NCBI GenBank assembly: GCA_023265515.1
Contig: JAHFSZ010000002.1
Span: forward strand, 8,358-72,357
Source: Verrucomicrobiota bacterium
Lineage (GTDB): Bacteria; Verrucomicrobiota; Verrucomicrobiia; JABWAM01; JAHFSZ01
Direction: 5' to 3'
DNA: 64,000 nt
Part shown: positions 2,654 to 64,000 of the stretch, piece by piece
Position numbering within the stretch: position 1 is the first letter of the stretch
How the letters are laid out: the number at the start of each line of letters is the position of its first letter
Notes under the pieces: generated by a model
The model's input: only the letters and a program-made list of their open reading frames with translations
Told to the model about the DNA's origin: nothing
The model's database searches: none
Translations under genes and position numbers: made by a program

Positions 2654-3132
2654 CCTACGGCATCGGATTCGGTTCGAACATGGGCGACCGTGTGGAGCAT
2701 ATCCGTGCGGGGATGGCTTTCCTCAACACCATCTTCAAATCCGGATGGCGGGTTTCATCGCTTTATGAGACGTCCCCCGTGGGTTGCCCTCCGGGGTCCC
2801 CGGATTTCATCAATGCCGTTGCCGAAGGGGAATTCGAAGGCAACCCGCTGGCTCTTCATCGGCTTCTCAAGGCGTTTGAACAAACTCGGGGAGACCGCCG
2901 CCCGCCGGCCGGGCGGAACGAGCCGCGCGCCCTCGACCTCGATCTGCTTTATGCCGAGGGGCCTTTTGCCAGCGCGGAACTGACGTTGCCTCATCCACGC
3001 CTCCATCTGCGACGTTTTGTTTTGCAACCGCTGGCCGAAATTCATCCGGCACTGGTCATTCCCGGACTGGGAAAGACCGTGCAGGAGTTGTTGGCGGCTT
3101 TAAAAACCGACGAAGTGGTTCGAGCCCTGTGA
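2650..3132 (+). CDS. folK: 2-amino-4-hydroxy-6-hydroxymethyldihydropteridine pyrophosphokinase (HPPK)
   Basis: ~160 aa with FolK-like layout (IGxGSNxGD, LDLDLL); its start overlaps the dapB stop by 4 nt. Confidence 0.8.
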   Translation: MTYGIGFGSNMGDRVEHIRAGMAFLNTIFKSGWRVSSLYETSPVGCPPGSPDFINAVAEGEFEGNPLALHRLLKAFEQTRGDRRPPAGRNEPRALDLDLLYAEGPFASAELTLPHPRLHLRRFVLQPLAEIHPALVIPGLGKTVQELLAALKTDEVVRAL

Positions 3133-3236: not shown

Positions 3237-3953
3237 ATGATGATCTTTCCAGCCATCGATCTTAAAAACGGCAAATGTGTCCGTCTCCTGCAGGGGAAAG
3301 CGGAGGAGGTCACCGTTTATTCCGACAACCCTGTTGCGATTGCGATGCAGTGGCAGGAACAGGGCGGCCAATTCCTCCATGTGGTCGACTTGGATGGCGC
3401 TTTTTCCGGCGAACCCAAAAACCGCGAATGGGTCCGCCAGATTATCTCATCAGTGCCGATTCATATCCAGCTGGGCGGGGGTCTTCGGACACTCCTCCAG
3501 ATTCGCGAGGTCCTCGAGCTCGGCGTCGATCGCGTCGTCCTGGGAACCAGGGCAGCCTCGGAAGATTTTGTGCGGAAGGCTCTGCGCGAGTTTGGCGCCG
3601 AGAAGCTGGTCGTGGGCATTGACGCCCGGGATGGCAAAGTGGCCCTGTCCGGATGGACGGAACAGACGGGTCTGAACGCCATTGATCTGGCCAAAAGGGT
3701 TTTTGAGCTCGGCATCCTCCGGATGGTGTTTACGGATATCAACACGGACGGGATGCTCATTGGCCCGCCGCTGGATTCGATCCGGCGGCTTTGCGCGGCT
3801 GTCGGCTGCTCCGTGATCGCTTCCGGGGGCGTTTCCACTCTGGAGGACATCCGCAAGTTGCGGGAGCTCAAACTTTCCAATTTGGAGGGTGTCATTGTCG
3901 GCAAGGCGCTTTACGAAAAAAAGTTCACCCTTCGCGAGGCGCTTCGTGATTGA
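3237..3953 (+). CDS. hisA: ProFAR isomerase (phosphoribosylformimino-5-aminoimidazole carboxamide ribotide isomerase)
   Basis: N-terminal IFPAIDLKNGKCVRLLQG and a (beta/alpha)8 HisA-like sequence. Confidence 0.85.
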   Translation: MMIFPAIDLKNGKCVRLLQGKAEEVTVYSDNPVAIAMQWQEQGGQFLHVVDLDGAFSGEPKNREWVRQIISSVPIHIQLGGGLRTLLQIREVLELGVDRVVLGTRAASEDFVRKALREFGAEKLVVGIDARDGKVALSGWTEQTGLNAIDLAKRVFELGILRMVFTDINTDGMLIGPPLDSIRRLCAAVGCSVIASGGVSTLEDIRKLRELKLSNLEGVIVGKALYEKKFTLREALRD

Positions 3954-5925
3954 TTACGTGAAGGAATTAAACCCGCAACAACTGGAGGCTGTTCAGGCGC
4001 CGCCGGGCCCGCTCTTGATTATCGCGGGGGCGGGGAGCGGCAAAACCCGGACACTGACCTACCGTGTGGCCTTCCTGATCGAAAAGGGCCTGCCGCCAGA
4101 TCGTCTGTTGCTGCTGACGTTTACCAACAAGGCCGCCAACGAGATGCTCCATCGCGTCTCATCCCTGCTTCCAGTGGACGCGTCGCGGATTCCCGGCGGA
4201 ACTTTCCACAGCATCTGCAACCGGCTGCTCCGGCGCCACGCGCGCGAGGCCGGCTACGAGCCGGGCTTTTCCATTTTTGACGAGGAGGATTCCAAGGACG
4301 TGATTGCCCAGTCCGTCGCCGAGGAACAGATCGACACCAGGAAGAACCGATTTCCGAAACCCGAGGTGTTAAGCGACATCTTCAGCCTCGCGGCGAACAC
4401 AGAGCGGCCCGCCGCCCAGATCGTCCGCGAACAGTACGAGCATTTCGAGGAGCTGATCAGGGAAATCGAACGCGTTCAGGAGCGCTACCAGCACCGGAAA
4501 AGAGAGATGAACGGAATGGATTACGATGACCTGCTCTCGGTGTTTCTCCGGCTGCTGAAAACCAATCCCGGAATCCGCGAAAGCTACCAGAAAATCTTTC
4601 AATATGTCCTGGTCGACGAGTACCAGGACACCAACAAAATCCAGAGTGACATCGTCGACACGCTGGTCGCTGGCCACAAAAATGTGATGGTGGTCGGCGA
4701 CGACGCGCAAAGCATCTACTCGTGGCGTGGCGCCAATTTTCGCAACATCATGGAATTTCCGAAGCGCTACCCCGGCGCGAAAATCGTCCGCATCGAGCAG
4801 AACTACCGGAGCACGCCGCAGGTTCTGGAGCTGGCCAATGCCTCGATCGCGCAGAACACCGAGCAGTTCAAAAAGAATCTTCAACCGGTTCGGGCGAGGG
4901 GACCGAAGCCGGTGATCGTCCCCGCTTCCAACGGGTTCCAGCAGGCGGAATTCGTCGCCACGCAGGTGCTGGAGCTGCGCGATCAGGGGATCAATCTCAA
5001 CCAGGTCGCGGTCCTTTACCGCTCGCATTATCACAGCATGGAACTGCAGATGGAATTGACGCGGCGCAACATCCCGTTCCACATCACTTCGGGAATTCGC
5101 TTTTTCGAGCAGGCCCACGTCAAGGATGTGGCGGCGCATTTAAAGCTCGTCCTCAACCCCAGCGACGAGCTTTCTTTCAAGCGCCTGCTCAAGCTAATGC
5201 CCAAGGTTGGTGCCATGACCGCCGACAAGATCTGGCGCAAGGTCGGAGCGGAACCGAGAAACTCTGATTTGAAGGGTCTCGTCGCTCGGATGATTCAGCA
5301 TGGCCCATCAATCCCCAGGGCGGCGGAGAATGAATGGAAACAGTTTGCGGCAATACTCAAGCAACTTGCGTCGGATGAAATTCGAAAGCATCCCTCCGAG
5401 ATGATCCATAGCGTCCTGGAATCCTGGTACTCGGCGTACCTGAAAGTAACTTATCCCAATTTTAAACATCGCCTGGAGGACCTTGCCCAGTTCGCGTCGT
5501 TTGCGGCGAAATTCAAGGACCTGGAACATTTTCTCGCGGAACTGACGCTGATGACCAACCTCGAGATTGAGCAGGAAGCCAGGGATGAGAGGCTCGACCC
5601 TTCCGAAATCCTGAGGCTCTCCACGGTTCACCAGGCCAAGGGCCTTGAATTCGAGGCCGTGTTCGTCATCGGATTGGCTGATGGTATGTTTCCCTCGAGC
5701 CGGTCGCTCCAGTCGCAGGCCAACGAGGAGGAAGAGCGCCGGCTCTTTTACGTCGCCGTAACGCGTGCGAAGGACTATTTGTTTCTCATCTATCCGCTGA
5801 TCCGGTCCAATGCCGGGTATTACGGCGATGCTATGCAGAAGCCCTCCCGCTTCATTTACGAGCTGCCCGAACACTGTGCCGAACGAGCCGAGCTCCCTGA
5901 GAAAAGCTGGGCTTGGGAGAGTTGA
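3946..5925 (+). CDS. UvrD/PcrA/Rep-family ATP-dependent DNA helicase
   Basis: Walker A (AGAGSGKTRTLTYR), helicase motifs II (VLVDEYQDTN), IV and VI (VAVTRAK). The track ORF starts at 3889 inside hisA; an in-frame GTG at 3946 overlapping the hisA stop is the more plausible start, but this is uncertain. Confidence 0.85.
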   Translation: MIDYVKELNPQQLEAVQAPPGPLLIIAGAGSGKTRTLTYRVAFLIEKGLPPDRLLLLTFTNKAANEMLHRVSSLLPVDASRIPGGTFHSICNRLLRRHAREAGYEPGFSIFDEEDSKDVIAQSVAEEQIDTRKNRFPKPEVLSDIFSLAANTERPAAQIVREQYEHFEELIREIERVQERYQHRKREMNGMDYDDLLSVFLRLLKTNPGIRESYQKIFQYVLVDEYQDTNKIQSDIVDTLVAGHKNVMVVGDDAQSIYSWRGANFRNIMEFPKRYPGAKIVRIEQNYRSTPQVLELANASIAQNTEQFKKNLQPVRARGPKPVIVPASNGFQQAEFVATQVLELRDQGINLNQVAVLYRSHYHSMELQMELTRRNIPFHITSGIRFFEQAHVKDVAAHLKLVLNPSDELSFKRLLKLMPKVGAMTADKIWRKVGAEPRNSDLKGLVARMIQHGPSIPRAAENEWKQFAAILKQLASDEIRKHPSEMIHSVLESWYSAYLKVTYPNFKHRLEDLAQFASFAAKFKDLEHFLAELTLMTNLEIEQEARDERLDPSEILRLSTVHQAKGLEFEAVFVIGLADGMFPSSRSLQSQANEEEERRLFYVAVTRAKDYLFLIYPLIRSNAGYYGDAMQKPSRFIYELPEHCAERAELPEKSWAWES

Positions 5926-6143: not shown

Positions 6144-6809
6144 ATGGCCAAGCGTTATGCACCCCGAAAATCCTCGAAAACGCGCTCCCCGGGTCTCTTC
6201 ATCTCCTTTGAAGGCGTCGACGGAACGGGCAAATCGACACAGATTCGCCTTTTGGCAGCCCGCCTGGAAGGGCTCAAAAAGCGTGTGGTGGTGCTTCGCG
6301 AGCCTGGTGGAACTCGGATCGGCGAAAAAATCCGACATCTCCTTCAGTACGACCGCGGAGCCCTCCAGATGACACCGGCGACCGAAACACTTCTTTTTTG
6401 CGCCAGCAGGGCCCAGTTGACCTCCGAAAGGATCCTCCCTGCCCTTGCCGCGGGCAAAGTGGTCCTGACCGACCGCTTCATCGACTCGACGACCGTTTAT
6501 CAGGGGTACGGACGAAAACTGGGGCACGATGCGATTCAAAAAATCCATGAATTTTCCATCGGCCGCGTTCGTCCTCATCTCACGTTCGTCCTCATGATGA
6601 AGCCGGAGACCTCCGTAAGGCGCGCGCGACGACGTGGCCGATTCGACCGGATGGAAGCTCAGAAAAAATCCTTCTACCGATCCATCCATCGAGGCTACCG
6701 GGCACTGGCACGCCGCGAGCCTGGCCGGATCCGATGGATCGCCGCCGACCGTTCCCGCCATGCGGTCCATTCCGACATTTGGAAGGAAACATTGAAAAAA
6801 TTGAAATGA
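6144..6809 (+). CDS. tmk: thymidylate kinase
   Basis: P-loop FISFEGVDGTGKST and LID-region arginines. Confidence 0.85.
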   Translation: MAKRYAPRKSSKTRSPGLFISFEGVDGTGKSTQIRLLAARLEGLKKRVVVLREPGGTRIGEKIRHLLQYDRGALQMTPATETLLFCASRAQLTSERILPALAAGKVVLTDRFIDSTTVYQGYGRKLGHDAIQKIHEFSIGRVRPHLTFVLMMKPETSVRRARRRGRFDRMEAQKKSFYRSIHRGYRALARREPGRIRWIAADRSRHAVHSDIWKETLKKLK

Positions 6810-6812
6810 CCG

Positions 6813-7778
6813 ATGGCGTGGAGTGATTTTAAACAAAACGCGGCGACCATACGGTTCGTCCAAAAGGCGCTTCTGGCGGGGCGCCTTGGTCATGCCTACC
6901 TGATCACCGGCGAATCCCATCAGAAACTTGGCCTCGCCCGGCAAATCGCCGCAGCGCTCAATTGCGCGGGCGCAACGGGCGACGCCTGCGGTCAGTGCAA
7001 TTCCTGCCGGAAAATCTTAACAGATCATCATCCGGACGTGCGACTGTTTCGCCCCGAATCCAAATCGAGGCGAATCGACATTGATACGGTTCGCGAGCTG
7101 GAGCGGGTCTCCTTTCTCAAGGCAAGCGAGGGCCGCACCAAGGTCGGCATCCTCGTCGACGCGGACCGTCTGACCCAACCCGCCCAGGACGCGTTTCTGA
7201 AAACGCTCGAGGAACCGCCCAAAAACACCCTCTTTCTGTTGATCACATCGGAGCCGGAACAGCTCAAATACACAATTCTTTCGCGCTGCCTGAGAATCAA
7301 TCTTTTCCAGGAGGAGCCAGCCGAACCTTCCGAGCGTCAGAAGAACATCCTGTCGGTACTCAGGGGTTGGAAATCGGCTCCGAACCAAAGCTCCCTCTTC
7401 CAAACCTACCGGCTTGCGGACGCATTCCAGAAGGCGCTGGACGAGGCCAAAGAAGAGGCCGAAACCAAGGTGCAAGCTGATTACGAAGGCAAGGGCTATG
7501 AAAACCTCGATGCCGCACAGCGCGAAAAAATCGAGGCCGAAAAAGATGCGGCTGTGAAGGCCGAGTATCGCAGGCAGCGTGATCATCTGGTCCGCGTTTT
7601 GGAGGATCATCTCCGGGACATGAGCATCTCGGCTCCGTCGAATCGGAAACTGGTGCGCGCCTTCGATGCGGTCGAGCGGATGCACGCACGCTTCGAAAGA
7701 AACATGAACGAGGGCCTCCTCCTGGAAGTCACGCTGATGCAGTTGGCCGAAGCGCTGGAATCGCAGGGCCGTTCATGA
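6813..7778 (+). CDS. holB: DNA polymerase III delta-prime subunit
   Basis: HAYLITGxxxxGK AAA+-like motif plus a CxxC...CxxC zinc module (CGQCNSCRKI); the tmk-holB adjacency is classical. Confidence 0.8.
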   Translation: MAWSDFKQNAATIRFVQKALLAGRLGHAYLITGESHQKLGLARQIAAALNCAGATGDACGQCNSCRKILTDHHPDVRLFRPESKSRRIDIDTVRELERVSFLKASEGRTKVGILVDADRLTQPAQDAFLKTLEEPPKNTLFLLITSEPEQLKYTILSRCLRINLFQEEPAEPSERQKNILSVLRGWKSAPNQSSLFQTYRLADAFQKALDEAKEEAETKVQADYEGKGYENLDAAQREKIEAEKDAAVKAEYRRQRDHLVRVLEDHLRDMSISAPSNRKLVRAFDAVERMHARFERNMNEGLLLEVTLMQLAEALESQGRS

Positions 7779-9691: not shown

Positions 9692-9784
9692 ATCCGATGC
9701 TGGATGTTCGATGCTGGATGACGAGCAGGATTTTGTATTCTTTTTTGGACTTCTTGCAAAAGCAAGATTTCGATTTGAGATTGA

Positions 9785-10792
9785 TTGACCGCGCGCTCAG
9801 GAGTACAACCCATCCATCCGATGCCCAACAACACCACCTTCAAGGTCACCAAACACGTTACCGTCGAAGATTTTTATACGGCCCATGCCGAGGCGTTACA
9901 GTTGAAACTGATCGCGGGCGCCACCGGCCTGCACCGCAGAATCCGTGAAGGTTCGGTCAACCGTTTGGGCCTCGCCCTCAGCGGTTTTTTTACATACTTC
10001 GCGGAAAAAAGGGTCCAGATCATGGGCAGCGCCGAAACAAGCTATCTGCGTTCCCTGAGCAAACCGACCCTTCGCACCCGCGTGCGCGCCCTCTTCAGCA
10101 AGAAAATCCCATGCATCATTTTCGCCCGCAGCATCAACCCCCCCGCCCTGTTCATTGAAGAGGCGGAGGACCATCAGATTCCCATTTTCAAGTCGCCAAT
10201 GATCACGATGCGACTCGTCAACGCGGTGACGATCTACCTCGAATCCGATTTTGCGCCCCAGACCAACGAGCACGCCAGCATGGTCGACATCATGGGCATC
10301 GGTACTCTCATCCGCGGCAAGAGCGGCATTGGCAAAAGCGAGTGCGTCCTTTCCCTCGTGGAGTGCGGCTTCAGCATCGTTTCCGATGACATGACCCGGA
10401 TCCGCCTGCTGGAGGGACGGGAACTGATCGGCACTTGCCCGAACAAGGTGGCCGGCTACCACATGGAGGTCCGCGGTCTTGGGATCATCCACGTCGGGCA
10501 CATTTTCGGCGTGGGAAGCATCCGGGCCGAAAAGCGCGTTGATCTGGTCGTCACGCTGGTTGACTGGGCAGAGATCGAGGACAAGATCGACCGGCTTGGG
10601 ATGGATCAGAACACGACCGAAATCCTGGGCATCAAGGTGCCTCAGGTGATTATCCCCGTCCGGCCGGGGCGCGACATCGCCAAACTCGTCCAGGTCGCCG
10701 CCATGGACCAGAAGTTGAAGTTGATGGGTTACAACTCGGCGCTTGAATTCAACCAGCGTCTTATTCAAACCATGAAGCATAATCATCTGTAG
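9785..10792 (+). CDS. hprK: HPr kinase/phosphorylase
   Basis: P-loop GKSGIGKSE and the HprK C-terminal catalytic domain; full-length form with an N-terminal domain. The start may be M at 9821. Confidence 0.9.
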   Translation: MTARSGVQPIHPMPNNTTFKVTKHVTVEDFYTAHAEALQLKLIAGATGLHRRIREGSVNRLGLALSGFFTYFAEKRVQIMGSAETSYLRSLSKPTLRTRVRALFSKKIPCIIFARSINPPALFIEEAEDHQIPIFKSPMITMRLVNAVTIYLESDFAPQTNEHASMVDIMGIGTLIRGKSGIGKSECVLSLVECGFSIVSDDMTRIRLLEGRELIGTCPNKVAGYHMEVRGLGIIHVGHIFGVGSIRAEKRVDLVVTLVDWAEIEDKIDRLGMDQNTTEILGIKVPQVIIPVRPGRDIAKLVQVAAMDQKLKLMGYNSALEFNQRLIQTMKHNHL

Positions 10793-22700: not shown

Positions 22701-22728
22701 TCGAAGTTCGAAATCCGAAATCCGAAAG
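22699..22728. repeat. tandem heptamer array (TCGAAAT / TCCGAAA x4) immediately 5' of the SBP start codon
   Basis: ATTCGAAGTTCGAAATCCGAAATCCGAAAG, directly abutting the proposed ATG at 22700 of the minus-strand SBP gene. Confidence 0.65.
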
Positions 22729-22734
22729 CAAGGA

Positions 22735-32094: not shown

Positions 32095-34004
32095 CACGGT
32101 TTCAGCAGAAGGAGTTCGTCGCCGGCAAGGGTCAGGACAGGGCAATAGAGTCCTCTTCTTTGCCGGGTCCACCAGGTTCCCTCGCTGCGGAGGGTTGAGA
32201 GATCAGTGAAGTGATAATCATAGATGACGGCACGAAGGTAGCGTGGAGGCCCCTCCGGAAACGGATTTTTTCCCAGCAGGGCGAGCACGTCCGGCGAGCC
32301 CTGGAGCAGCTTCAGGCAAAATCGGCCGAACCATGGGTTTTGCCGGACAGAGCCGAGCGCGGCGAACCACATCTGCCAATCGAGGCGCGGCTGATGAGGC
32401 TGAACCCAGAGAGGATGCCGTTTGAGGTCGCCCGGCTTGTATTTGAACTCGTACGGCAGCCAGTCGACGCCGTTATTGCTCCCCTCGATGATGATTTCTA
32501 GCCGCGCGGTGGTCATGACCCGGAAGAGGCCGTAACCATTGACGGAGCGGAAAGGAACGAACAGAGCGTACGTTCTTTCGACCCAGTTCGGCCAGGCGAA
32601 GCGGACGCGGAACGCTCCGATCAAAGCGAGGTTCGACATGAAAAGAATGACTATGGAAAGCGGGACGAGAACCCAACGCGGCCAACGCAGGCCGGTATTG
32701 CCCGTTCCGCCAAAAGTCCACCGACTCACGACCTCGGCGAGCTTCTCCCGCCAGGAACCTGGCCAGGCGGAGTCATCCAGCAGGCAAAGGCAAAGGAGCG
32801 CGGCGAGCATATTGAAGAAACAGTAATTTCCCGTCAGGAAAATCAGCATTTGAAGGAAGAGGAATGCTCCGCATGCGAAGGCGCGGAGACGCCTCGGCCC
32901 GAAAATCAAGAACGGAACGATCAGCTCGATCGCAAACATGGCGCCGGCGGAAAACTGCTGACACCATCCGGGAAAATGATGCGCAAACCATCCAATCCAT
33001 GTCGGCAGTGGCTGGGTTTCATAGTGGTAGGTCAGCGCGGTGAAATGATGCCACGTCGGATCTCCACTGGAGAGCTTGACGACTCCGGACATGAAGATGA
33101 GCCGGAAAACCAGCCAGCGGTAGAGCCACACCACGGCCAGGCTGGGAGCAGCCTCGTGTCGAAAGTTGGGAAGCCATTGGAGGGGTGCAAAAAAGATCGC
33201 AAGAAAGCCGGTTTCCAAAAGGAGGATGTCCCATTGAAAACTCAGGAACTCCTGCCCGACGACGGCGAGCGACAGATAGAACGCCCAGAGCAGAAACAAA
33301 ACCAACACGGGCGCAAACCCCAGAATCAGGAGCAGGGAAAGAAGCGTCCCACCAAAACAGAGGAAGTGCAGGAAGTTGTCGCTCGCGTCAAACCAACAGA
33401 GCGTCGGAAGGTACTGCACGGCCTCGTACCCGAAACGCCCCTTGACTGCCTCGATCAATTCCGAGGCCGGTAGAATGCCGTTGCGGCCGACAAGCCCGCT
33501 GATCTGGGTCCAGAGCGAAAGGAACGCGATCAGGTAAATCACACCGAGGCCTCTGAGGAAAAACCACCGGGTGAGGTTATATTCAGGGGGCTCATAGCGC
33601 CGCCCCCAGAGAAAGCGGGAAACCGACGAGAACAAGCCGCGGTTCCGCGCCACGCGACGGTAGATGAATTCGGTGGCGCGGGCAAAGCCCGGAGCTCTTT
33701 TATAGAGCCAAAGCGGAGCTCTTGCGATCCAGGCGGGAGTCGTCGCCAGCGTCCGAAACACCGCCTCGGCGGCGCTGAAGACCCGGCCGTCCGGCAGGCA
33801 GAGCTTCACCGCCTTTTCGAACGCCTCCTTCGGCACACCGGCAAATGGTATCTCGAGCGACTGGTAAGGGACATAGTCCACTTTTTCGCGCGTCCAATGT
33901 TTCCACCGCGCGATCCAGTAGCCGCAGAATCCGCAATCGCCGTCGTAAACCAGAAGGGGGTTTTTCACATTCATAAGATCCGGCAAACCGACGCATCTTA
34001 TCAA
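32094..34004 (-). CDS. fusion of DCC-type thiol-disulfide oxidoreductase (DUF393) and lipase-maturation-factor (LMF) membrane domain
   Basis: N-terminal VYDGDCGFCGYWI (DCC family), then a polytopic membrane region and an LMF-like C-terminal domain (RLDWQMWFAALG...NPFP). Confidence 0.7.
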   Translation of the reverse strand: MIRCVGLPDLMNVKNPLLVYDGDCGFCGYWIARWKHWTREKVDYVPYQSLEIPFAGVPKEAFEKAVKLCLPDGRVFSAAEAVFRTLATTPAWIARAPLWLYKRAPGFARATEFIYRRVARNRGLFSSVSRFLWGRRYEPPEYNLTRWFFLRGLGVIYLIAFLSLWTQISGLVGRNGILPASELIEAVKGRFGYEAVQYLPTLCWFDASDNFLHFLCFGGTLLSLLLILGFAPVLVLFLLWAFYLSLAVVGQEFLSFQWDILLLETGFLAIFFAPLQWLPNFRHEAAPSLAVVWLYRWLVFRLIFMSGVVKLSSGDPTWHHFTALTYHYETQPLPTWIGWFAHHFPGWCQQFSAGAMFAIELIVPFLIFGPRRLRAFACGAFLFLQMLIFLTGNYCFFNMLAALLCLCLLDDSAWPGSWREKLAEVVSRWTFGGTGNTGLRWPRWVLVPLSIVILFMSNLALIGAFRVRFAWPNWVERTYALFVPFRSVNGYGLFRVMTTARLEIIIEGSNNGVDWLPYEFKYKPGDLKRHPLWVQPHQPRLDWQMWFAALGSVRQNPWFGRFCLKLLQGSPDVLALLGKNPFPEGPPRYLRAVIYDYHFTDLSTLRSEGTWWTRQRRGLYCPVLTLAGDELLLLKP

Positions 34005-34056
34005 TTCGGCGGGGCGAGCAAAACCATTTTGAGCCTAAAAAGCCGACATTGAGTCC

Positions 34057-34737
34057 TCACCGGCGCGCTCGCAGAGTGCGGCCCACCAGACGGATGAAAC
34101 GGAGGGTGTCGATCACTGGGTTGATATGGCTTGATTCTCCCCGGTAGATCGTTTTGATCGGGCATGAGCCGATCCGGTGGCCCGCGCAGGCCAATTGAAA
34201 GAGAATTTCGCTCTCCAGATCGAAGTGGCTTGTGGTCAGCCGCCAATCAAGCGATCCAAGAAGCCGGCGCGAAAAGAGCCTAAATCCGCACTGCGTATCC
34301 GGCATCCACTGCCCCGCAATCCGGCTGATCAGCCATGACATGAAGCGGTTCGTCGCGATCCGAATCCAAGGCATCTTCCTTGTATCCCTCATCCGGTTGC
34401 CCAGCACCAGATCATAAGAACCTCGCTGTGCACACTCGTAAAGCATCGGGATGTCGGCGGGATCATGCTGGCCGTCGGAATCGAGCAGAACCAGCCATGG
34501 CAGGTCTTCCTTCGCGAACGTTTCAAAAGCCGTCTGGATCGCCACGCCCTTACCGCGATTCTTCGGGTGGCGCACCGCGACGGCCCCCGCCGCCTCCGCC
34601 GCCTCGGCAGTGCCGTCCTTCGACCCGTCATCCACGACCACGACTTTTTCGACAAACTGCAGGCATGACTTCACCACCGGCACGATCCGGACAGCTTCGT
34701 TGTACGCGGGAAGGATGGCGACGATGGGCAATTTCAT
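34057..34737 (-). CDS. family 2 glycosyltransferase (polyprenyl-phosphate sugar transferase-like)
   Basis: N-terminal AILPAYNE, VVDDGSKDGT and a DxD-like motif. Confidence 0.8.
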   Translation of the reverse strand: MKLPIVAILPAYNEAVRIVPVVKSCLQFVEKVVVVDDGSKDGTAEAAEAAGAVAVRHPKNRGKGVAIQTAFETFAKEDLPWLVLLDSDGQHDPADIPMLYECAQRGSYDLVLGNRMRDTRKMPWIRIATNRFMSWLISRIAGQWMPDTQCGFRLFSRRLLGSLDWRLTTSHFDLESEILFQLACAGHRIGSCPIKTIYRGESSHINPVIDTLRFIRLVGRTLRARR

Positions 34738-34826
34738 TTCTAATTTCGGATTTCTAATTTCTAATCAAAACTGTGACCAAAGCTGACAAACGTTAGAAAT
34801 AAGAAATTAGGAATTAGAAATTTTCA
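34738..34826. repeat. AT-rich inverted repeat built from heptamer units (ATTTCTA/ATTTCGG), ~30-bp arms, 25-bp spacer
   Basis: Left arm 34738-34766 (TTCTAATTTCGGATTTCTAATTTCTAATC). Right arm 34792-34823 is its imperfect reverse complement. Located between the lipA stop and the GT2 start; the right arm encodes the last 5 codons of lipA. Confidence 0.7.
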
Positions 34827-35691
34827 ATTCATCCGCATGATAGGAGCTGCGAACGAGGGGCCCGGAAAAAACTTCGCGGAAGCCGAGTGCGAGCGCAATG
34901 CTGCGATACCAGTCGAAGCGCTCCGGCGGCACAAATTCGACCGCCGGCAGATGCCGCAGCGTGGGCTGAAGATACTGCCCCAGCGTCAGCACGTCGCAAC
35001 CCGCAGTACGCAGGTCCAAAAACGCCTGTTTTAACTCCCCCTCCGTCTCGCCAAGGCCAAGCATCAGCCCGGACTTGATCACGACGGAGCCTGAAAGCTC
35101 CCGCGCTTTTTTCAGGACGGAAAGCGAACGCCGATAGCGCGCCCGCGAGCGGACTTGCGGCGTGAGGCGCTCAACAGTTTCGAGATTGTGGTTGAACACT
35201 TCCGGCCCTGCCTCGAGCACAGTCTTCAGGCTCTCCCCGGATCCGTTGAAATCGGTCGTGAGGACCTCCACAACAATCGGGCCGCACGATTCCTTGATGG
35301 CCTGGACCGTTTTGGCAACATGTCCCGCCGCCCCATCCTCCAGATCATCCCTCGCCACCATCGTGATGACCACGTGACGCAAACCGAGGCGCAGGCATGC
35401 GCCGGCAACGCGCCGGGGTTCGTCGTCCTCCAGCGGCAGCGGCCTGGCGGTCTCCACCGCGCAAAAGCCGCAGGCCCGCGTACACCGGCTGCCCGCCACC
35501 ATGAAGGTCGCGGTGGCCCGCGACCAGCATTCCCAGCGGTTCGGACAGCGGGCGCTTTCGCAAACCGTATTGAGGCGCAGGTCCTCGATAAGCCGGCTCG
35601 TGCGTCCAAAGACGGGGTTGGATGGCAGCTGGACGCGAATCCAATCGGGGATTCGGGGCCGGCGTGCTGCTTCTGGCGTGGAAACGTCCAT
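34807..35691 (-). CDS. lipA: lipoyl synthase
   Basis: Radical-SAM CxxxCxxC (CTRACGFC) plus the N-terminal CESARCPNRWEC cluster motif. Confidence 0.9.
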   Translation of the reverse strand: MDVSTPEAARRPRIPDWIRVQLPSNPVFGRTSRLIEDLRLNTVCESARCPNRWECWSRATATFMVAGSRCTRACGFCAVETARPLPLEDDEPRRVAGACLRLGLRHVVITMVARDDLEDGAAGHVAKTVQAIKESCGPIVVEVLTTDFNGSGESLKTVLEAGPEVFNHNLETVERLTPQVRSRARYRRSLSVLKKARELSGSVVIKSGLMLGLGETEGELKQAFLDLRTAGCDVLTLGQYLQPTLRHLPAVEFVPPERFDWYRSIALALGFREVFSGPLVRSSYHADELKISNS

Positions 35692-35734: not shown

Positions 35735-36802
35735 GTGAAAAGAATATTATTCGTGACTCAGGGTGACCAGGCAACCGCATCCAGCCGCCACCGGGTTTAT
35801 CAATTCGTCCCGCTTTTGGAAAAGGCCGGCTGGGATGTCGTCATCAGCCCGGCGATGACGGCGGCTGAATACAGGATCATGTCGATCAAGGCCGACCCGC
35901 TGACCCGGGGTCGCCAGTATTGGAGGATCATGACGCGACGTTTCCGCGATCTGCACCATATTCAGGAGTTCGACCGCGTGGTCATCCAGCGGCCGATCCT
36001 GCCGGCGCCATGGCCTTTCATGGAGAAAAGTTTTGCCCGCCACAAGCCGTTCATCTTCGACTATGAGGAGGCCTTTTATCTGCCTGCGGAGACAACCGCC
36101 AACATCTGGGGCGAGCACCGGCAGACCCAGAGAATCAGCGACATCTGCCAACTGGCGAAGAAAGTCTTGGGCGCCAATGAAATTCTGGCGGATTTTGCCC
36201 GCGGCCACGGCACCGAAGCGCATGTTGTACCCATGGCGATCGACTTTGAAAAAGCCTCCGATGCCATGGCGCGCCGGCATCCAAACCCGACGTTCACGAT
36301 CGGCTGGTTTGGAAGCGGCCTGGCTCAGCCGAGCCTCGAAAAGGTGATCCCCGTCCTCAAGAGCCTCCACCAGAAGGCCCCCTTCGCCCTCAAGATCATC
36401 GGCGGCATGCCGCATGCGGTCAACTATGCGTTTCCCGTGGAGTGGCTCCCCTGGGAAATTGAGAAGGAGAACGATCACCTGGCTTCCTTCGACATGGCGA
36501 TCGCCCCGATCCCGGACACGCCCCGCAACAGAACCCGCACGAGCTTCCGCATCCTTCAATACCTCGCTCACCAGGTCCCCGTACTGGCCTCCCCGGTCGG
36601 CATCCAGGCCGGCGAGTTGAAGGAAGGCGAGCATATCGTCTACGCCCGGACACCCGAAGAATGGTCCGACAAAATCGTTATGCTGATGAAGGATGAATCC
36701 CTCCGGAACCGGCTGGCAGTGGCTGGAAAAGACTGCGTCCGCCAGAGTCACGATCTCAACAATGTCTTCAAAAAATTGTTCCAGGTGCTGGACGCCGAGT
36801 GA
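35735..36802 (+). CDS. GT-B fold glycosyltransferase (GT4-like)
   Basis: C-terminal GT-B donor-binding signature (E..x7..E-like region, GxPxLASPVG); the N-terminal acceptor domain is divergent. Confidence 0.6.
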   Translation: MKRILFVTQGDQATASSRHRVYQFVPLLEKAGWDVVISPAMTAAEYRIMSIKADPLTRGRQYWRIMTRRFRDLHHIQEFDRVVIQRPILPAPWPFMEKSFARHKPFIFDYEEAFYLPAETTANIWGEHRQTQRISDICQLAKKVLGANEILADFARGHGTEAHVVPMAIDFEKASDAMARRHPNPTFTIGWFGSGLAQPSLEKVIPVLKSLHQKAPFALKIIGGMPHAVNYAFPVEWLPWEIEKENDHLASFDMAIAPIPDTPRNRTRTSFRILQYLAHQVPVLASPVGIQAGELKEGEHIVYARTPEEWSDKIVMLMKDESLRNRLAVAGKDCVRQSHDLNNVFKKLFQVLDAE

Positions 36803-36932
36803 GGGTCAGAACCCAGAACTCAGGACTCAGAATGAAGGGGCAGAATTTAGGGGTCAGGAGTCGGAAGAACAGCTGGATAAGATGATCACAATGAATTCTG
36901 GATTCTGGATTCCGAGTTCTGTATTCTGGAAA
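36803..36932. repeat. inverted arrays of heptamer-periodic CAGAA / TTCTG units immediately upstream of kdsA
   Basis: 36805-36870 contains CAGAA/CAGGA at 7-bp intervals (about 7 units). 36893-36930 contains TTCTG/TTCCG at 7-bp intervals (5 units) in the opposite orientation. Confidence 0.7.
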
Positions 36933-38255: not shown

Positions 38256-38279
38256 TTTTTCGGTCTTGAATGTTGAATT

Positions 38280-38984
38280 TTAAATTTTGAGCTTAAGCAG
38301 CGCTTCCGCAAACCGAATATCCTGCTTTCTCGTGATCTTCGGGTTGGGGCCGTCGTATTCGTACAAATAAACTTTCCCGCCCCAGGCCTCGACGGCCGCC
38401 GCGTCGTCCGTAACGCCCAGTTTCTTCTTACAGACATGTCGATAGGCATTCAAAATCAACGATCGGCGGAAAACCTGAGGCGTCTGGACCGCAAAGAGAT
38501 GGTTTCGGTCGACGGTGGCATGGACACGGCACCGGCCATTGACCTTTTTGATCGTGTCAACCACCTTGGAGCCGATCACGGCCGACCCGCGCTGGCGCGC
38601 CACCCGGAGGCCCTCGCGAATCATCGCTTCATTCAAGAAAGGCCGGGCCCCATCGTGAATGATCACCCACCCGCTCTCCTTGCCGATTTTTTCGAGAGCC
38701 AGGCTGACGGAATCGGAGCGCTCAGCACCGCCACGGATCATTTTCTTGACCTTGGTGAAACGGTGGCGTCGGACGAGCGACTGGAGCTTGCTTCTATTGC
38801 GCTCGTTGCAGGTGAGAAAAACCTGGTGGATGGACGGTGAACGCTGAAGCGCGCGCAACGAGTAAAACAAGACCGGCCTGCCCGCGAGCGGGAGGAAAAG
38901 CTTGTCGATCCGCCGGCCCATGCGGCGGCTCCGGCCCGCGGCCAGAAGGATGGCGGTGGCAAGGCCGTTTTTAGCTCTTGGCAT
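38280..38984 (-). CDS. ispD: 2-C-methyl-D-erythritol 4-phosphate cytidylyltransferase
   Basis: N-terminal AILLAAGxSxRMG motif; ispD-ispF adjacency. Confidence 0.85.
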   Translation of the reverse strand: MPRAKNGLATAILLAAGRSRRMGRRIDKLFLPLAGRPVLFYSLRALQRSPSIHQVFLTCNERNRSKLQSLVRRHRFTKVKKMIRGGAERSDSVSLALEKIGKESGWVIIHDGARPFLNEAMIREGLRVARQRGSAVIGSKVVDTIKKVNGRCRVHATVDRNHLFAVQTPQVFRRSLILNAYRHVCKKKLGVTDDAAAVEAWGGKVYLYEYDGPNPKITRKQDIRFAEALLKLKI

Positions 38985-48022: not shown

Positions 48023-48400
48023 TCAATGGCCATGCTCTTCGGCCGGCGCCGGAGCGCTCTGCCGGAACAATGGACCCGGGGTTGAGGATGAGGTCCTGAT
48101 TTCGTCCTTCAGCGACCAGAGCGTCAGCGCCATCAAGCCCGTGAAAAAGATCGCCGTGAAAATCATCACCTTGAAAATGACGGCCATCTTTACAAACATG
48201 TCCCAGAACAGATGCATGAAGATGCTGGCCACCAACGCGGCCTTCAACGTCGCGATGATCAAGGCAACAACAATGTTTCCCGAGTGTCCGAAATGGATGT
48301 AGGACACTCCCACTGTCACGCCGGTCAGGACGATCAACGACACCCCGACGATCATGTACCATGAAACGTGTTTTTTGATGGCTTTAACCGTATCGCTCAT
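48023..48400 (-). CDS. coxD: cytochrome c oxidase subunit IV (prokaryotic caa3-type CtaF/CoxD family)
   Basis: Three TM helices with similarity to B. subtilis CtaF (WKHIVGF.../...FMHL). The start is taken at M 48400 rather than the track start 48490. Confidence 0.65.
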   Translation of the reverse strand: MSDTVKAIKKHVSWYMIVGVSLIVLTGVTVGVSYIHFGHSGNIVVALIIATLKAALVASIFMHLFWDMFVKMAVIFKVMIFTAIFFTGLMALTLWSLKDEIRTSSSTPGPLFRQSAPAPAEEHGH

Positions 48401-62026: not shown

Positions 62027-63880
62027 TTAGGAGCGCATTTTCTTGAGGGCGTGTTCCAGATTCCAGCCGGTTTTTTTCAGCGCCGCCCACGCCTCCTCGT
62101 AGGAAAAACCGGTCAACTCCTTCATGATCCGGGTCATCCGATCCTGCAATTTCTCGCACGAGGGTTGCAGGTCGGTCATCAGATTGTCCTTCACTTTCCC
62201 GAGGCGGATCATCGAGATCGTCGTCAACATGTTCAACATCAGTTTCGTCGCCGTTCCTGCCTTCAGTCTTGTTGAGCCCGCCACCACCTCGGGCCCCGTG
62301 TCCACCAGCAACGTGAGAAAGCGGTTGTTGCCCTTGAACTCCACAGGCGCCGCCGGATTGCATGTCAAGAGGATGCTCCTCGCCCCCGCGCTCAGCGCTG
62401 CCTGCAGCGCTCCGATGACAAACGGGGTCGATCCCGAAGCGGTGATGCCGACAACGACGTCCTTGCGGCCGACATGCCGGTTCCGAATGGATTCGGCTCC
62501 GTACACCCCATCATCTTCCGCGGTTTCGATCGCCTGGTAGAGCGCGCGAAAACCTCCCGCGATGATTCCCTGCACCATCGAGGGAGGCGTGCCGAAGGTC
62601 GGCGGGCACTCCGCCGCATCGAGCACACCGAGCCGTCCGCTCGTGCCGGCACCCACGTAAAAGAGCCTTCCGCCTGCCCGCAAAGCGGACGTGATCCACT
62701 GGATCGCCCGGTCGATGGATTCGCTGCGTTGCAAAATCTGCGGGATCACGGTCTTTTCCTCGGACATCATTAAATCGATGATTTCCTTGATCGACGCCTT
62801 TTCGAGATGGCGCGCACGGGGATTCGGTTGCTCGGTGGGTGAATGAGCAAGGTTGCGCGATTCAATCGAGCCCCGGTAAAGATCGCCCCGGTCGCGCGGC
62901 GGCTTGATCCATCGATAAAGTTTCGTAGCGGGTTTAGCTTCGATGAACCGCGAGCGGCAAAGCAACGCGGCGCCGTAAGCTCCCTCCTCGCGGCTCACGT
63001 TGACCCGAGCGTGCGGCAGTTTCATGAGGATCGCCTCCCGAAGTTTGAGCACATAGTAGGGCTGCCCCGCGGCGAGACCTCCGGTAAGCACCACGCGAGG
63101 CGTCTTGAGCTGGACCAGCTCCGCAGCCCGCACGACCTGCTGTGACAGCCGGAATGTTCCCTCCCGGATCACGTCCCGCGAAAGCTCCTTGTGCTTGAAG
63201 ACCAGCGGCGCAAGGCTGGCGATGTCCTCCTTGGAGGCCGCAAGCGTCCAGGTCACCAGTTCTTCCATGGTGTTGAGGCTGAGCTGGCGCAGCACGTCGC
63301 GGCCGAAGACGCTTGTCTGCCGGTCCTCGTCATACTCCAGAAATGTTCGTTGCAACATCAGCCTGGCCAGATCATAACCGCCGCCGACATCCCCCACGAC
63401 ATGGCCCCATCCGCCGAGCTTGCAGGCACGCGATCCGTTCCGCGCCAGCACGTTGGACCCGGTGCCGCAGATCACCATCACACCGGGCTTGTCCCCCAAA
63501 GCCGCCGCAAACCCCGAATCGGTGTCCCTGCCAACCAGGTGCCTCGACTCCGGCCAGACCTTTTGGGCAAGCCGCTTGACACGGGCCTCATCGCTCGGAG
63601 ACACACACCCGGCCACGAACATGCCGATGAATGATGATGCCGGCCGTTTCAAGCGCTCGCGGATTCCCTCCCAAAGATGGACGATCTGCCGGTCGTCCAG
63701 GAGCTTGATGTTGCAGGGCAAGGTCTTGATCCGTTGAACCACTCGCCCGCCACCATCGATCAAAATCGCAACCGTCTTGGTCGAGCCGCCCTCAATACCG
63801 CAGTAGAAGCATTTTTTCGAATTTCGAATTTCGAATTTCGAATGTCGATTTTTTGGAGTAGGCCGCATCCGAATCGCCAT
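62027..63880 (-). CDS. fusion protein: BadF/BadG/BcrA/BcrD-type sugar kinase (GlcNAc/MurNAc kinase-like) + N-acetylmuramic acid 6-phosphate etherase (MurQ, SIS domain)
   Basis: N-terminal CGIEGGSTKT phosphate-1 motif and kinase core. C-terminal SIS domain with GGRLFYVGAGTSGRLGVLDAAECPPTF, typical of MurQ. The N-terminal 25 codons contain an (ATTTCGA)3-4 repeat, so the exact start is uncertain. Confidence 0.8.
   Translation of the reverse strand: MAIRMRPTPKNRHSKFEIRNSKKCFYCGIEGGSTKTVAILIDGGGRVVQRIKTLPCNIKLLDDRQIVHLWEGIRERLKRPASSFIGMFVAGCVSPSDEARVKRLAQKVWPESRHLVGRDTDSGFAAALGDKPGVMVICGTGSNVLARNGSRACKLGGWGHVVGDVGGGYDLARLMLQRTFLEYDEDRQTSVFGRDVLRQLSLNTMEELVTWTLAASKEDIASLAPLVFKHKELSRDVIREGTFRLSQQVVRAAELVQLKTPRVVLTGGLAAGQPYYVLKLREAILMKLPHARVNVSREEGAYGAALLCRSRFIEAKPATKLYRWIKPPRDRGDLYRGSIESRNLAHSPTEQPNPRARHLEKASIKEIIDLMMSEEKTVIPQILQRSESIDRAIQWITSALRAGGRLFYVGAGTSGRLGVLDAAECPPTFGTPPSMVQGIIAGGFRALYQAIETAEDDGVYGAESIRNRHVGRKDVVVGITASGSTPFVIGALQAALSAGARSILLTCNPAAPVEFKGNNRFLTLLVDTGPEVVAGSTRLKAGTATKLMLNMLTTISMIRLGKVKDNLMTDLQPSCEKLQDRMTRIMKELTGFSYEEAWAALKKTGWNLEHALKKMRS
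63815..63848. repeat. tandem heptamer array (ATTTCGA x3 perfect plus 2 degenerate flanking units)
   Basis: TTTTCGAATTTCGAATTTCGAATTTCGAATGTCGA, in the 5' end of the kinase-MurQ ORF. Same unit as 22699-22728 in the opposite orientation. Confidence 0.65.
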
Positions 63881-64000
63881 TCTTGGCGTCTTTGCGGCTT
63901 TGCGCGAGAAAAAATAAGCCGGTTTCGGCTAATATTTATTGATCTGGTCAATCAGCATCCGCAGGCGGCCATAATCACGCCGGTTGAACAGCATCTTGAT

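Follow-up and report, generated by a model that had tools for sequence, protein, structure and literature searches.

The stretch of DNA analysed here (the window: 64,000 nt of contig JAHFSZ010000002.1 in the assembly GCA_023265515.1 of an uncultured member of the Verrucomicrobiota) carries on its minus strand lipA, for lipoyl synthase, followed by a gene for a family-2 glycosyltransferase (GT2). An inverted repeat lies in and around the 69-nt spacer between the two genes. Its arms (34736-34764 and 34793-34821) are 29 nt long each, complementary at 25 of 29 positions (86%), and separated by 28 nt. Both arms are tandem arrays with a period of 7 nt (4.3 copies, 82% matches, consensus ATTTCTA / TTAGAAA) according to Tandem Repeats Finder (TRF), and a separate periodicity scan concurs. 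Read in mRNA sense, the junction runs ...GAA TTG AAA ATT TCT AAT TCC TAA / TTTCTTATTTCTAA / 28-nt spacer / TTAGAAA TTAGAAA TCCGAAA TTAGAA ATG AAA TTG CCC... The distal arm encodes the lipA codons I-S-N-S and the stop codon (34807-34821), and the proximal arm overlaps the A and the T of the GT2 ATG (34737-34735). The GC content is 26.7% for the element and 17–21% for its arms, compared with 57.5% for the window.

An earlier note on this DNA had described an AT-rich, heptamer-built inverted repeat at the lipA-GT2 junction, which direct reading and repeat detection confirm. Its figure of ~30 bp for the arms also holds, but the spacer measures 28 nt, not 25 bp, and the ~60% GC given for the genome was slightly too high. 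Of the five residues KISNS that were said to be encoded by the arm, the last four and the stop codon do lie inside it, while the K codon is just outside. Among all inverted repeats of the window, this one and a sister element at 36807-36928 are the top two. The gene spacings of 69, 132 and 24 nt are identical in an ENA contig whose length (22,962 nt) is not that of the window's source (≥64 kb), which argues against an assembly artefact, provided that both assemblies are independent.

The lipA-GT2 element is not alone. The periodicity scan revealed period-7 arrays at five junctions of the window, where block shuffles preserving the local composition lead one to expect 0.03, and no arrays with a period of 8 or 9 (Table 1). 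Since the non-coding DNA as a whole gave no autocorrelation signal at lag 7, the arrays are discrete elements and not a genome-wide property. The proposal that (TTCNNNN)n arrays might be found at start codons is borne out at four more junctions. The other four window junctions and the relatives described below share the placement next to or over a start codon, sometimes with an overlap into the end of the upstream open reading frame (ORF); the arrays fill short spacers, so stop codons are touched as well. The array-bearing genes of the window are housekeeping genes.

We found the same kind of array in related genomes. The lipA product of the window is 61–67% identical to those of the best 80 loci in a collection of species-representative genomes, mostly metagenome-assembled genomes of Chthoniobacterales and Verrucomicrobiia, and up to 73–75% identical to those of two metagenome contigs. 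In 160 lipA-centred loci of other Verrucomicrobiota (1.07 Mb), 30 period-7 arrays were present where chance would give about 2, and the numbers for periods 8 and 9 were close to those of chance. Their heptamers are quite unlike those of the window (CTTGTCA, GTGACGT, CTTAAAR, TTCGTCA, TTGGGAT, TTGGTTG). Almost every array lies 0–70 nt (usually ≤15 nt) from the 5' end of a gene, and for about one third an inverted partner lies no more than 160 nt away. Arrays of two unrelated types, (GTGACGT)n/(CTTGTCA)n and (AAGCTTT)n/(CTTAAAR)n, are found at the recR-lipA junction of Chthoniobacterales, some of them single and some with an inverted partner. One relative (L161, 6910-6938) carries a period-7 array (GGTCTAA TGTCCAA GGTCCAA GGTT) in the convergent 3'-3' spacer between ispF and kdsA; adjacency to a start codon is therefore not universal. 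The array pair that fills the whole lipA-GT2 spacer belongs to this clade's class of period-7 arrays in short spacers adjoining start codons. ATTTCTA is not a special motif, as had been supposed, but one of the many heptamers that this clade-wide class uses at different junctions.

Table 1. Genes, repeat arms and period-7 arrays at the lipA-GT2 junction, at other junctions of the window and in relatives. Positions refer to the window unless a locus of a relative (label beginning with L) is given.
Feature	Position	Strand	Description
lipA (lipoyl synthase), upstream cistron	34807..35691	-	Pfam Radical_SAM and LIAS_N; tail after ADELK repeat-encoded
GT2 (polyprenyl-phosphate glycosyltransferase-like), downstream cistron	34057..34737	-	Pfam Glycos_transf_2; start within the predicted hairpin
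lipA-GT2 element, ATG-proximal arm	34736..34764	-	mRNA sense TTAGAAA TTAGAAA TCCGAAA TTAGAAAT; 29 nt, 4.3 copies, 20.7% GC
lipA-GT2 element, spacer (apical part of the hairpin)	34765..34792	-	28 nt, 43% GC; own small internal stem in the predicted fold
lipA-GT2 element, distal arm	34793..34821	-	mRNA sense ATTTCTA ATTCCTA ATTTCTT ATTTCTAA; 3' half intercistronic
Sister element before kdsA, distal arm	36805..36834	+	TCAGAAC-type, 4 units, (CAGAAYN)4; starts 3 nt past the stop of the GT1 gene (35735..36802)
Sister element before kdsA, proximal arm	36891..36930	+	ATTCTGG-type, (ATTCTGR)5, 5 units; ends 4 nt short of the kdsA ATG (36935)
Single array between ispD stop (38280) and ispF ATG (38255)	38263..38294	-	mRNA sense CTCAAAA TTTAAAA TTCAACA TTCAAGA; overlaps the ispD end
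Single array between GalT-like gene (stop 22735) and solute-binding-protein gene (ATG 22700)	22701..22731	-	mRNA sense TTTCGGA TTTCGGA TTTCGAA CTTCGA, then ATG
Array in the 5' end of the BadF/BadG-ATPase-SIS fusion ORF (62027..63880)	63815..63852	-	(TTTCGAA)x5; inside an N-terminal extension
GT1-kdsA junction in relatives	L168 1783-1880; L163 7925-7963; L166 7970-7999		(ATTCTGR)5 array, ending 4-6 nt ahead of the kdsA ATG; in L168 also an inverted (CAGAAYN)4 arm directly behind the upstream stop
recR-lipA junction arrays in relatives	L009 2133-2209; L063 ~3888-3967; L112 1114-1190; L027 3880-3965; L076 ~3049-3125; L042 3929-3966; L007 3928-3964

Some of these arrays have kept their sequence between species. 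The kdsA-proximal array aligns unit by unit between the window, L168, L163 and L166 and, in degraded form, L167, with the TTCT cores kept and the other three positions varying; in L161 the array has been lost. At the four-fold degenerate sites of kdsA, the identity between the window and L163 and L166 is 0.42 and 0.39, respectively, with 0.41 expected by chance. As the array stays aligned while synonymous sites are saturated, selection on such arrays can be argued. Likewise, the array in front of lipA (AACTTGTCACTTGTCACTCGTCACnnGTCACTCTT) is near-identical by eye in L007, L042, L076 and L027, where the four-fold identity of lipA is 0.51–0.58. At both junctions it is the ATG-proximal array that is conserved, and the inverted distal arm occurs in some lineages only (kdsA: window and L168; lipA: L027 and L076). 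In the sister elements, the inverted arm is thus an optional add-on. For the lipA-GT2 element itself, the evidence for conservation is weaker than for the kdsA and recR-lipA arrays: a 16-mer (GTTCAATGATAAATGT) is identical in L161 and L163, and the window has its units replaced by another heptamer. Taken together, the alignments argue for purifying selection on some period-7 arrays, which would then not be pure slippage debris.

Syntenic lipA-GT2 pairs in relatives were found via homologues of GT2. In most of them, namely those of L166, L167, L168, L169-171, L082 and the P0004 contig, the two genes share a 4-nt overlap (TTGA or ATGA); the GT2 identity to that of the window is 80%, 80%, 77% and 81% for the first four of these and 84% for the P0004 contig. 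This makes the overlap the probable ancestral state, from which the element would be derived. Elements filling the lipA-GT2 spacer are present in three lineages only, with a length of 43 nt in L161/162, 62 nt in L163-165 and 69 nt in the window; L081 has a single array of ~30 nt. The 62-nt version consists of (ATTTNNN)4, a GC-rich centre and (NNNAATG)4. Between species, the proximal arm has two units in L161 and four each in L163 and the window, while three samples of one species (L163, L164 and L165) do not differ. The end of lipA varies along with the junction. Past the conserved ADELK, the orthologues terminate in ADELKVI*, ADELKII*, ADELKLTSA* or ADELKFVHE*, and since all of these differ from one another and from the ISNS of the window, the tail of the latter has been written by the repeat. 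The earlier note had tied the lipA tail to the repeat and named orthologues that share this tail outside of any repeat context as the finding that would speak against it; the orthologue tails read here are all different, which favours the note.

A second junction has been opened in a similar way. In L161, L163 and L166, whose junctions were read, ispD and ispF overlap in an ATGA that is preceded by a G-rich motif resembling a Shine-Dalgarno (SD) sequence, and for L167 and L168 a 4-nt overlap is likewise given by the gene calls. In the window, ispD and ispF are separated by a 24-nt spacer made of heptamer array, ispD has a new stop codon and the SD-like motif is gone. On the other side of GT2, an 82-nt spacer separates this gene from an LMF1-like gene in the window (33975-34056, with the start taken from the ENA gene call), and no heptamer array is visible there; in L161, L166, L167 and L168 this pair has a 4-nt overlap.

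We next consider the RNA. The lipA-GT2 junction is predicted to form the long hairpin proposed before, with a minimum free energy of -28.4 kcal/mol (z = -2.2), internal loops about every 7 nt and the GT2 AUG in the stem. The units of the two arms are so similar that they could also pair in shifted registers, for which reason counting compensatory changes between the arms would tell little. The prediction for the kdsA sister element is -56.2 kcal/mol (z = -3.0); there, the AUG pairs with a GGGUCA that follows the upstream stop codon. Single arrays are predicted to be unstructured (z from 0 to +1). The opening energy, computed for positions -12 to +12 around the start codon, is 11.2–11.9 kcal/mol for GT2 in the free mRNA, which corresponds to the 69th percentile of 52 genes of the window. 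With a ribosome placed on the lipA stop codon, the computed value drops to 4.5–5.0 kcal/mol. For kdsA, we obtained 13.2 kcal/mol with the distal arm, 7.2 kcal/mol with a terminating ribosome upstream and 5.9 kcal/mol when the distal arm was omitted from the fold. The single arrays have predicted values of 3.6–5.4 kcal/mol (kdsA in L163 and L166), 4.6–7.1 kcal/mol (ispF in the window) and 17.7–20.0 kcal/mol (solute-binding-protein gene), all in free mRNA.

Occlusion of a ribosome-binding region by the hairpin, as had been suggested, finds no counterpart in the sequence, as no SD sequence is recognisable at GT2. The 4-mers AGGA, GGAG and GAGG occur at -18 to -4 in 8 of the 52 genes and in a control window at -70 to -56 in 7 of them (the starts being approximate), and the genome seems to make little use of SD sequences.

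How did such an element come about? In the recR-lipA junction of Chthoniobacterales, the distal (AAGCTTT)n arm starts within the final recR codons AAG CTT TAA, matching the expected product of a tandem duplication of local sequence. The two inverted elements of the window differ in both arm sequence and spacer, and no second copy of the lipA-GT2 arms plus spacer is present in the 64 kb. A mobile palindromic element of the miniature inverted-repeat transposable element (MITE) or repetitive extragenic palindromic (REP) type was rejected, because neither a further copy in the window nor a convincing flanking or target-site duplication was found. GGATGAATTGAAA / AAATGAAATTGCC had been considered as a target duplication, but they are the conserved E-L-K and M-K-L-P codons, which are present in element-less relatives too. 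We infer that the element arose locally, through slippage that duplicated 7-nt units and an additional inverted duplication, and that no mobile element was inserted. In many bacteria, heptanucleotides outnumber all other long simple-sequence repeats, for which a polymerase footprint favouring 7-nt slippage has been suggested as the cause (Mrazek 2007, according to PMC4679880 and PMC4692102).

By its 7-nt unit, its over-representation, its position in a start-adjacent spacer and its occurrence at many loci, the element is an intergenic heptanucleotide tandem repeat in the general sense. Judged by its sequence, it is outside every sequence-defined heptamer family that we compared. One close parallel are the TAACTGA repeats of marine Beggiatoaceae, some Cyanobacteria and Bacteroidetes (PMC4679880). 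They likewise consist of tandem intergenic 7-nt units (2–6 copies), mostly finish within a few nucleotides of a start codon and in some cases extend into the 3' end of the preceding ORF; few SD sequences accompany them, and no common function links the genes that follow. Candidate binders put forward for them are S1, cold-shock proteins and CsrA (PMC4679880). However, the heptamers differ in sequence, each junction here has its own (ATTTCTA, TTAGAAA, ATTCTGG and others), and the inverted-pair layout, which is common here, was seen once among 170 TAACTGA sets. No match to TAACTGATAACTGA with ≤2 mismatches exists in the window, so membership in this family was dismissed. Tandem heptanucleotides have also been described as 'global regulatory elements' of Geobacter metallireducens (PMC2700814); they too comprise 4–5 tandem heptamers at many loci, and their class 3, MTYCTGA x5, resembles the ATTCTGR units in front of kdsA. 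The Geobacter family is built on a single consensus and runs to dozens of nearly identical copies, a few of these intragenic, while the units found here differ by junction.

Nostoc PCC 7120 resembles our case in having several heptamers per genome, for example (TTTTGAA)3 and (GACYAAT)8, located no more than 30–100 nt from start codons and sometimes overlapping them, and their deletion alters the regulation of reporters (bioRxiv 10.1101/2022.06.06.494920). Those repeats lie mostly in promoters or 5' untranslated regions of an AT-rich genome and affect transcription factor access, whereas the present ones sit at an operon junction in DNA of 57.5% GC. The intergenic heptamers GGGAATC of Xanthomonas and GGGGAYT of Nostoc (Rehm 2015, PMC4692102) are over-represented relative to other unit lengths, occur between the same gene pairs in related species with varying length and sequence, and include some inverted pairs that could form stem-loops, all as observed here. 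Being G-rich, they can form G-quadruplexes, of which the AT-rich or G-poor arrays described here are incapable. A literature search combining Verrucomicrobia and heptanucleotide returned no report of such arrays in Verrucomicrobiota, and the phylum is named neither in PMC4679880 nor in a second paper checked for it. Within the literature searched, Verrucomicrobiota are thus a new phylum for heptamer arrays.

The short tandemly repeated repetitive (STRR) heptanucleotides of cyanobacteria are comparable heptamer repeats. The coat and replicase genes of phage MS2 are an example of translational coupling via mRNA secondary structure. The likeness to the latter is that the downstream start is paired with the end of the upstream cistron, and it describes a working mode, not a family. 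In silico, the lipA-GT2 junction shows this pairing, with the AUG in the stem and an opening energy that decreases with a ribosome on the lipA stop; here, the structure is a prediction only, and the pairing partner is a repeat array instead of unique coding sequence.

Several other identities were considered and discarded. An intrinsic (Rho-independent) terminator does not fit arms of 17–21% GC that are not followed by a T run, and a terminator scan was empty at the element. A promoter scan found no promoter-like site in the element, a scan for known RNAs found no tRNA or tmRNA, and Rfam gave no match at gathering thresholds, only look-alikes of plant miRNA precursors below threshold (E 0.3–0.5). 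A phase-variable contingency locus is at odds with the imperfect units (82%), with the housekeeping genes concerned and with junctions that are identical across L163/L164/L165 and between L161/L162, although this sample is small. HutP-like (UAG-N4)3 sites or CsrA GGA sites each suit one or two arrays, not the set. An insulator with stops in three frames holds for the proximal arm of GT2 and fails for the kdsA, ispF and solute-binding-protein arrays. The rule that an inverted arm is found only where a co-directional gene ends just upstream is contradicted by L042, which has recR immediately upstream and a single array.

The element probably governs how GT2 is translated. Our favoured explanation, to which we would give a little less than an even chance, is that the element keeps the translation of GT2 coupled to that of lipA by mRNA structure, in place of coupling by overlap. 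It would act on the polycistronic lipA-GT2 mRNA at the GT2 start site. By itself, the AU-rich and G-poor proximal array would be a very open start site that lacks an SD sequence; pairing with the distal arm would fold this site into an imperfect 29-bp hairpin, broken about every 7 nt, and close the start to an ordinary level. A ribosome finishing lipA would then unzip the stem and expose the GT2 AUG, since it terminates at a stop codon that is part of the distal arm. Coupling by termination and reinitiation requires an overlap or a very short gap and is abolished beyond ~20–38 nt (PMC10666635), so another coupling device would be needed once the spacer had grown. Structure-based coupling would thus replace the termination-reinitiation coupling that the 4-nt overlap presumably gave.

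A number of observations weigh against this explanation. The masked GT2 start is no more closed than the median of the window (10.1 kcal/mol), and the 52 background starts were taken from the longest ORFs and are imprecise. At 11–12 kcal/mol the masking is modest, and while the start is indeed masked, the term translational attenuator used before overstates it. The homologous hairpin of L163 has a z of +0.3, that of L161 barely folds, and neither shows predicted relief by a terminating ribosome. Partnerless single arrays exist in front of ispF in the window and in front of kdsA in L163 and L166, which means that the arrays can do without a hairpin, whatever their role. In so tight a junction, any element filling the space has to touch stop and start alike, so its geometry alone is no evidence. 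Finally, the distribution of the lipA-GT2 element is patchy (window, L161 and L163 in a poorly resolved tree of five proteins), implying repeated gain or loss, or recombination; such a phyletic pattern is expected of repeats with a fast turnover.

This patchiness among close relatives, together with heptamers that have been re-homogenised, would also suit a neutral or selfish by-product, in which polymerase slippage by 7 nt, with template switching for the inverted copy, lets functionless arrays build up at sites that tolerate them, namely short spacers. The abundance of heptanucleotides and the proposed polymerase footprint cited above point the same way, as do the array seeded from the end codons of recR and the one in the convergent spacer of L161. 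We nevertheless regard this explanation as unlikely, if still one to be reckoned with. Some arrays have kept position-specific sequence despite saturated four-fold sites, inverted partners recur at about one third of the loci, and housekeeping junctions that were ancestrally overlapping and presumably coupled (ispD/ispF and lipA/GT2) have been opened without loss of the downstream gene. The conserved proximal arrays speak for a protein platform, in which the array would offer successive sites, each ~7 nt wide, to a protein that binds single-stranded RNA (a cold-shock protein or the OB-fold domains of ribosomal protein S1). This protein would recruit or make way for SD-independent initiation, with the inverted arm being incidental or modulatory. 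Such a platform would account for the 7-nt unit and is in keeping with the missing SD signal of the window genome and with the structure-poor single arrays, whose opening energies are mostly 3.6–7 kcal/mol (the exception being the solute-binding-protein gene at 18–20 kcal/mol). MacGregor 2015 proposed the like for the TAACTGA arrays, citing CspB at one heptamer per protein (PMC4679880). On the other hand, the heptamer varies by junction (ATTTCTA, ATTCTGG, TTTCGGA and AATTCAA in the window; CTTGTCA, CTTAAAR and TTCGTCA in relatives), which does not suit any one sequence-specific factor, and the ATG-proximal array of lipA-GT2 is purine-rich (UUAGAAA), in contrast to the pyrimidine-rich arrays elsewhere. 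We therefore consider the platform improbable as well.

RNase III usually needs a stem of roughly 20–22 bp, and AU-rich single-stranded flanks suit RNase E. The intercistronic stem of 29 bp and the AU-rich single-stranded flanks of the element could accordingly make a processing site, where cutting of the duplex would separate the lipA and GT2 segments of the mRNA and allow their stabilities to be set independently. But cleavage in the stem would remove the start region of GT2, the internal loops interrupt the stem about every 7 nt, and the stems of the relatives are much weaker or absent; we hold this to be very unlikely. A site at the DNA level, influencing transcription over the junction either as a cruciform or through a regulator or nucleoid protein bound along the array, seems the least likely of the rivals, with hardly any probability left to it. 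An inverted repeat is strand-symmetric, and this one is predicted to fold as single-stranded DNA too (-13.5 kcal/mol, z = -2.4). Precedents exist in the Vibrio cholerae ctxAB promoter, where heptad repeats serve as transcription factor sites (bioRxiv 10.1101/2021.05.14.444153), and in the Nostoc recO reporters, where deletion of heptamer repeats changed the regulation by LexA and NtcA (bioRxiv 10.1101/2022.06.06.494920). However, the junction lies within an operon and is a 4-nt overlap in relatives, promoter-like hexamers are absent, a spacing of 7 bp places successive sites on different faces of the helix, and the heptamers vary from locus to locus.

A few repeats of the window stand somewhat apart. 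The TTTCGAA array of the BadF/BadG-ATPase-SIS gene is the highest-scoring tandem repeat of the window (TRF score 62). It encodes ..NRHSKFEIRNSKK.. ahead of the Pfam domain, which begins at residue 28. The ATG directly after the array (63813) is out of frame (M-L-L-L-R-Y-stop), and the only in-frame starts (63880 and 63868) are both upstream of it. The repeat may have created an N-terminal extension; a frameshift or a non-canonical start codon would be alternatives. The preceding gene has a terminator-like hairpin at ~63905-63930. The second-highest TRF score (52) belongs to a 15-nt tandem repeat (CCGTGAAAATCATCA x2.7, 48139-48178). In addition, two weaker short-period repeats directly precede other starts, a 9-nt repeat (AAAAATTGA x2.2, 6787-6806) an ATG at 6813 and GATTTCG ATTTGAG ATTGA (9760-9784) an ORF at 9785.

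A wider and more speculative possibility, which we think has only a small chance of being correct, is that period-7 arrays are conserved cis-elements of an SD-independent initiation system shared by SD-poor Verrucomicrobiota, Cyanobacteria, Beggiatoaceae and Bacteroidetes. They would form a ladder for a protein with a 7-nt footprint (of the cold-shock-domain or S1 type), with optional inverted arms serving as a switch that is opened by upstream ribosomes. If this were true, the finding that the kdsA and recR-lipA arrays are conserved unit by unit would be the first comparative evidence for it within the literature searched.

The arrays also matter for annotation, because they rewrite the ends of genes (the lipA and ispD tails) as well as their starts (the extension of the BadF/BadG-SIS gene). 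The cataloguing of start-adjacent heptanucleotide arrays in several phyla goes back decades. The Verrucomicrobiota offer a natural experiment on their function: one and the same gene pair exists with a -4 overlap, with 43-nt and 62-nt spacers and with a spacer of 69 nt that is bridged by the predicted hairpin, and a sister junction exists with and without its inverted arm. Such a set of orthologous junctions (overlap, single array and inverted pair) makes it testable whether these arrays are a coupling device, a protein platform or junk.

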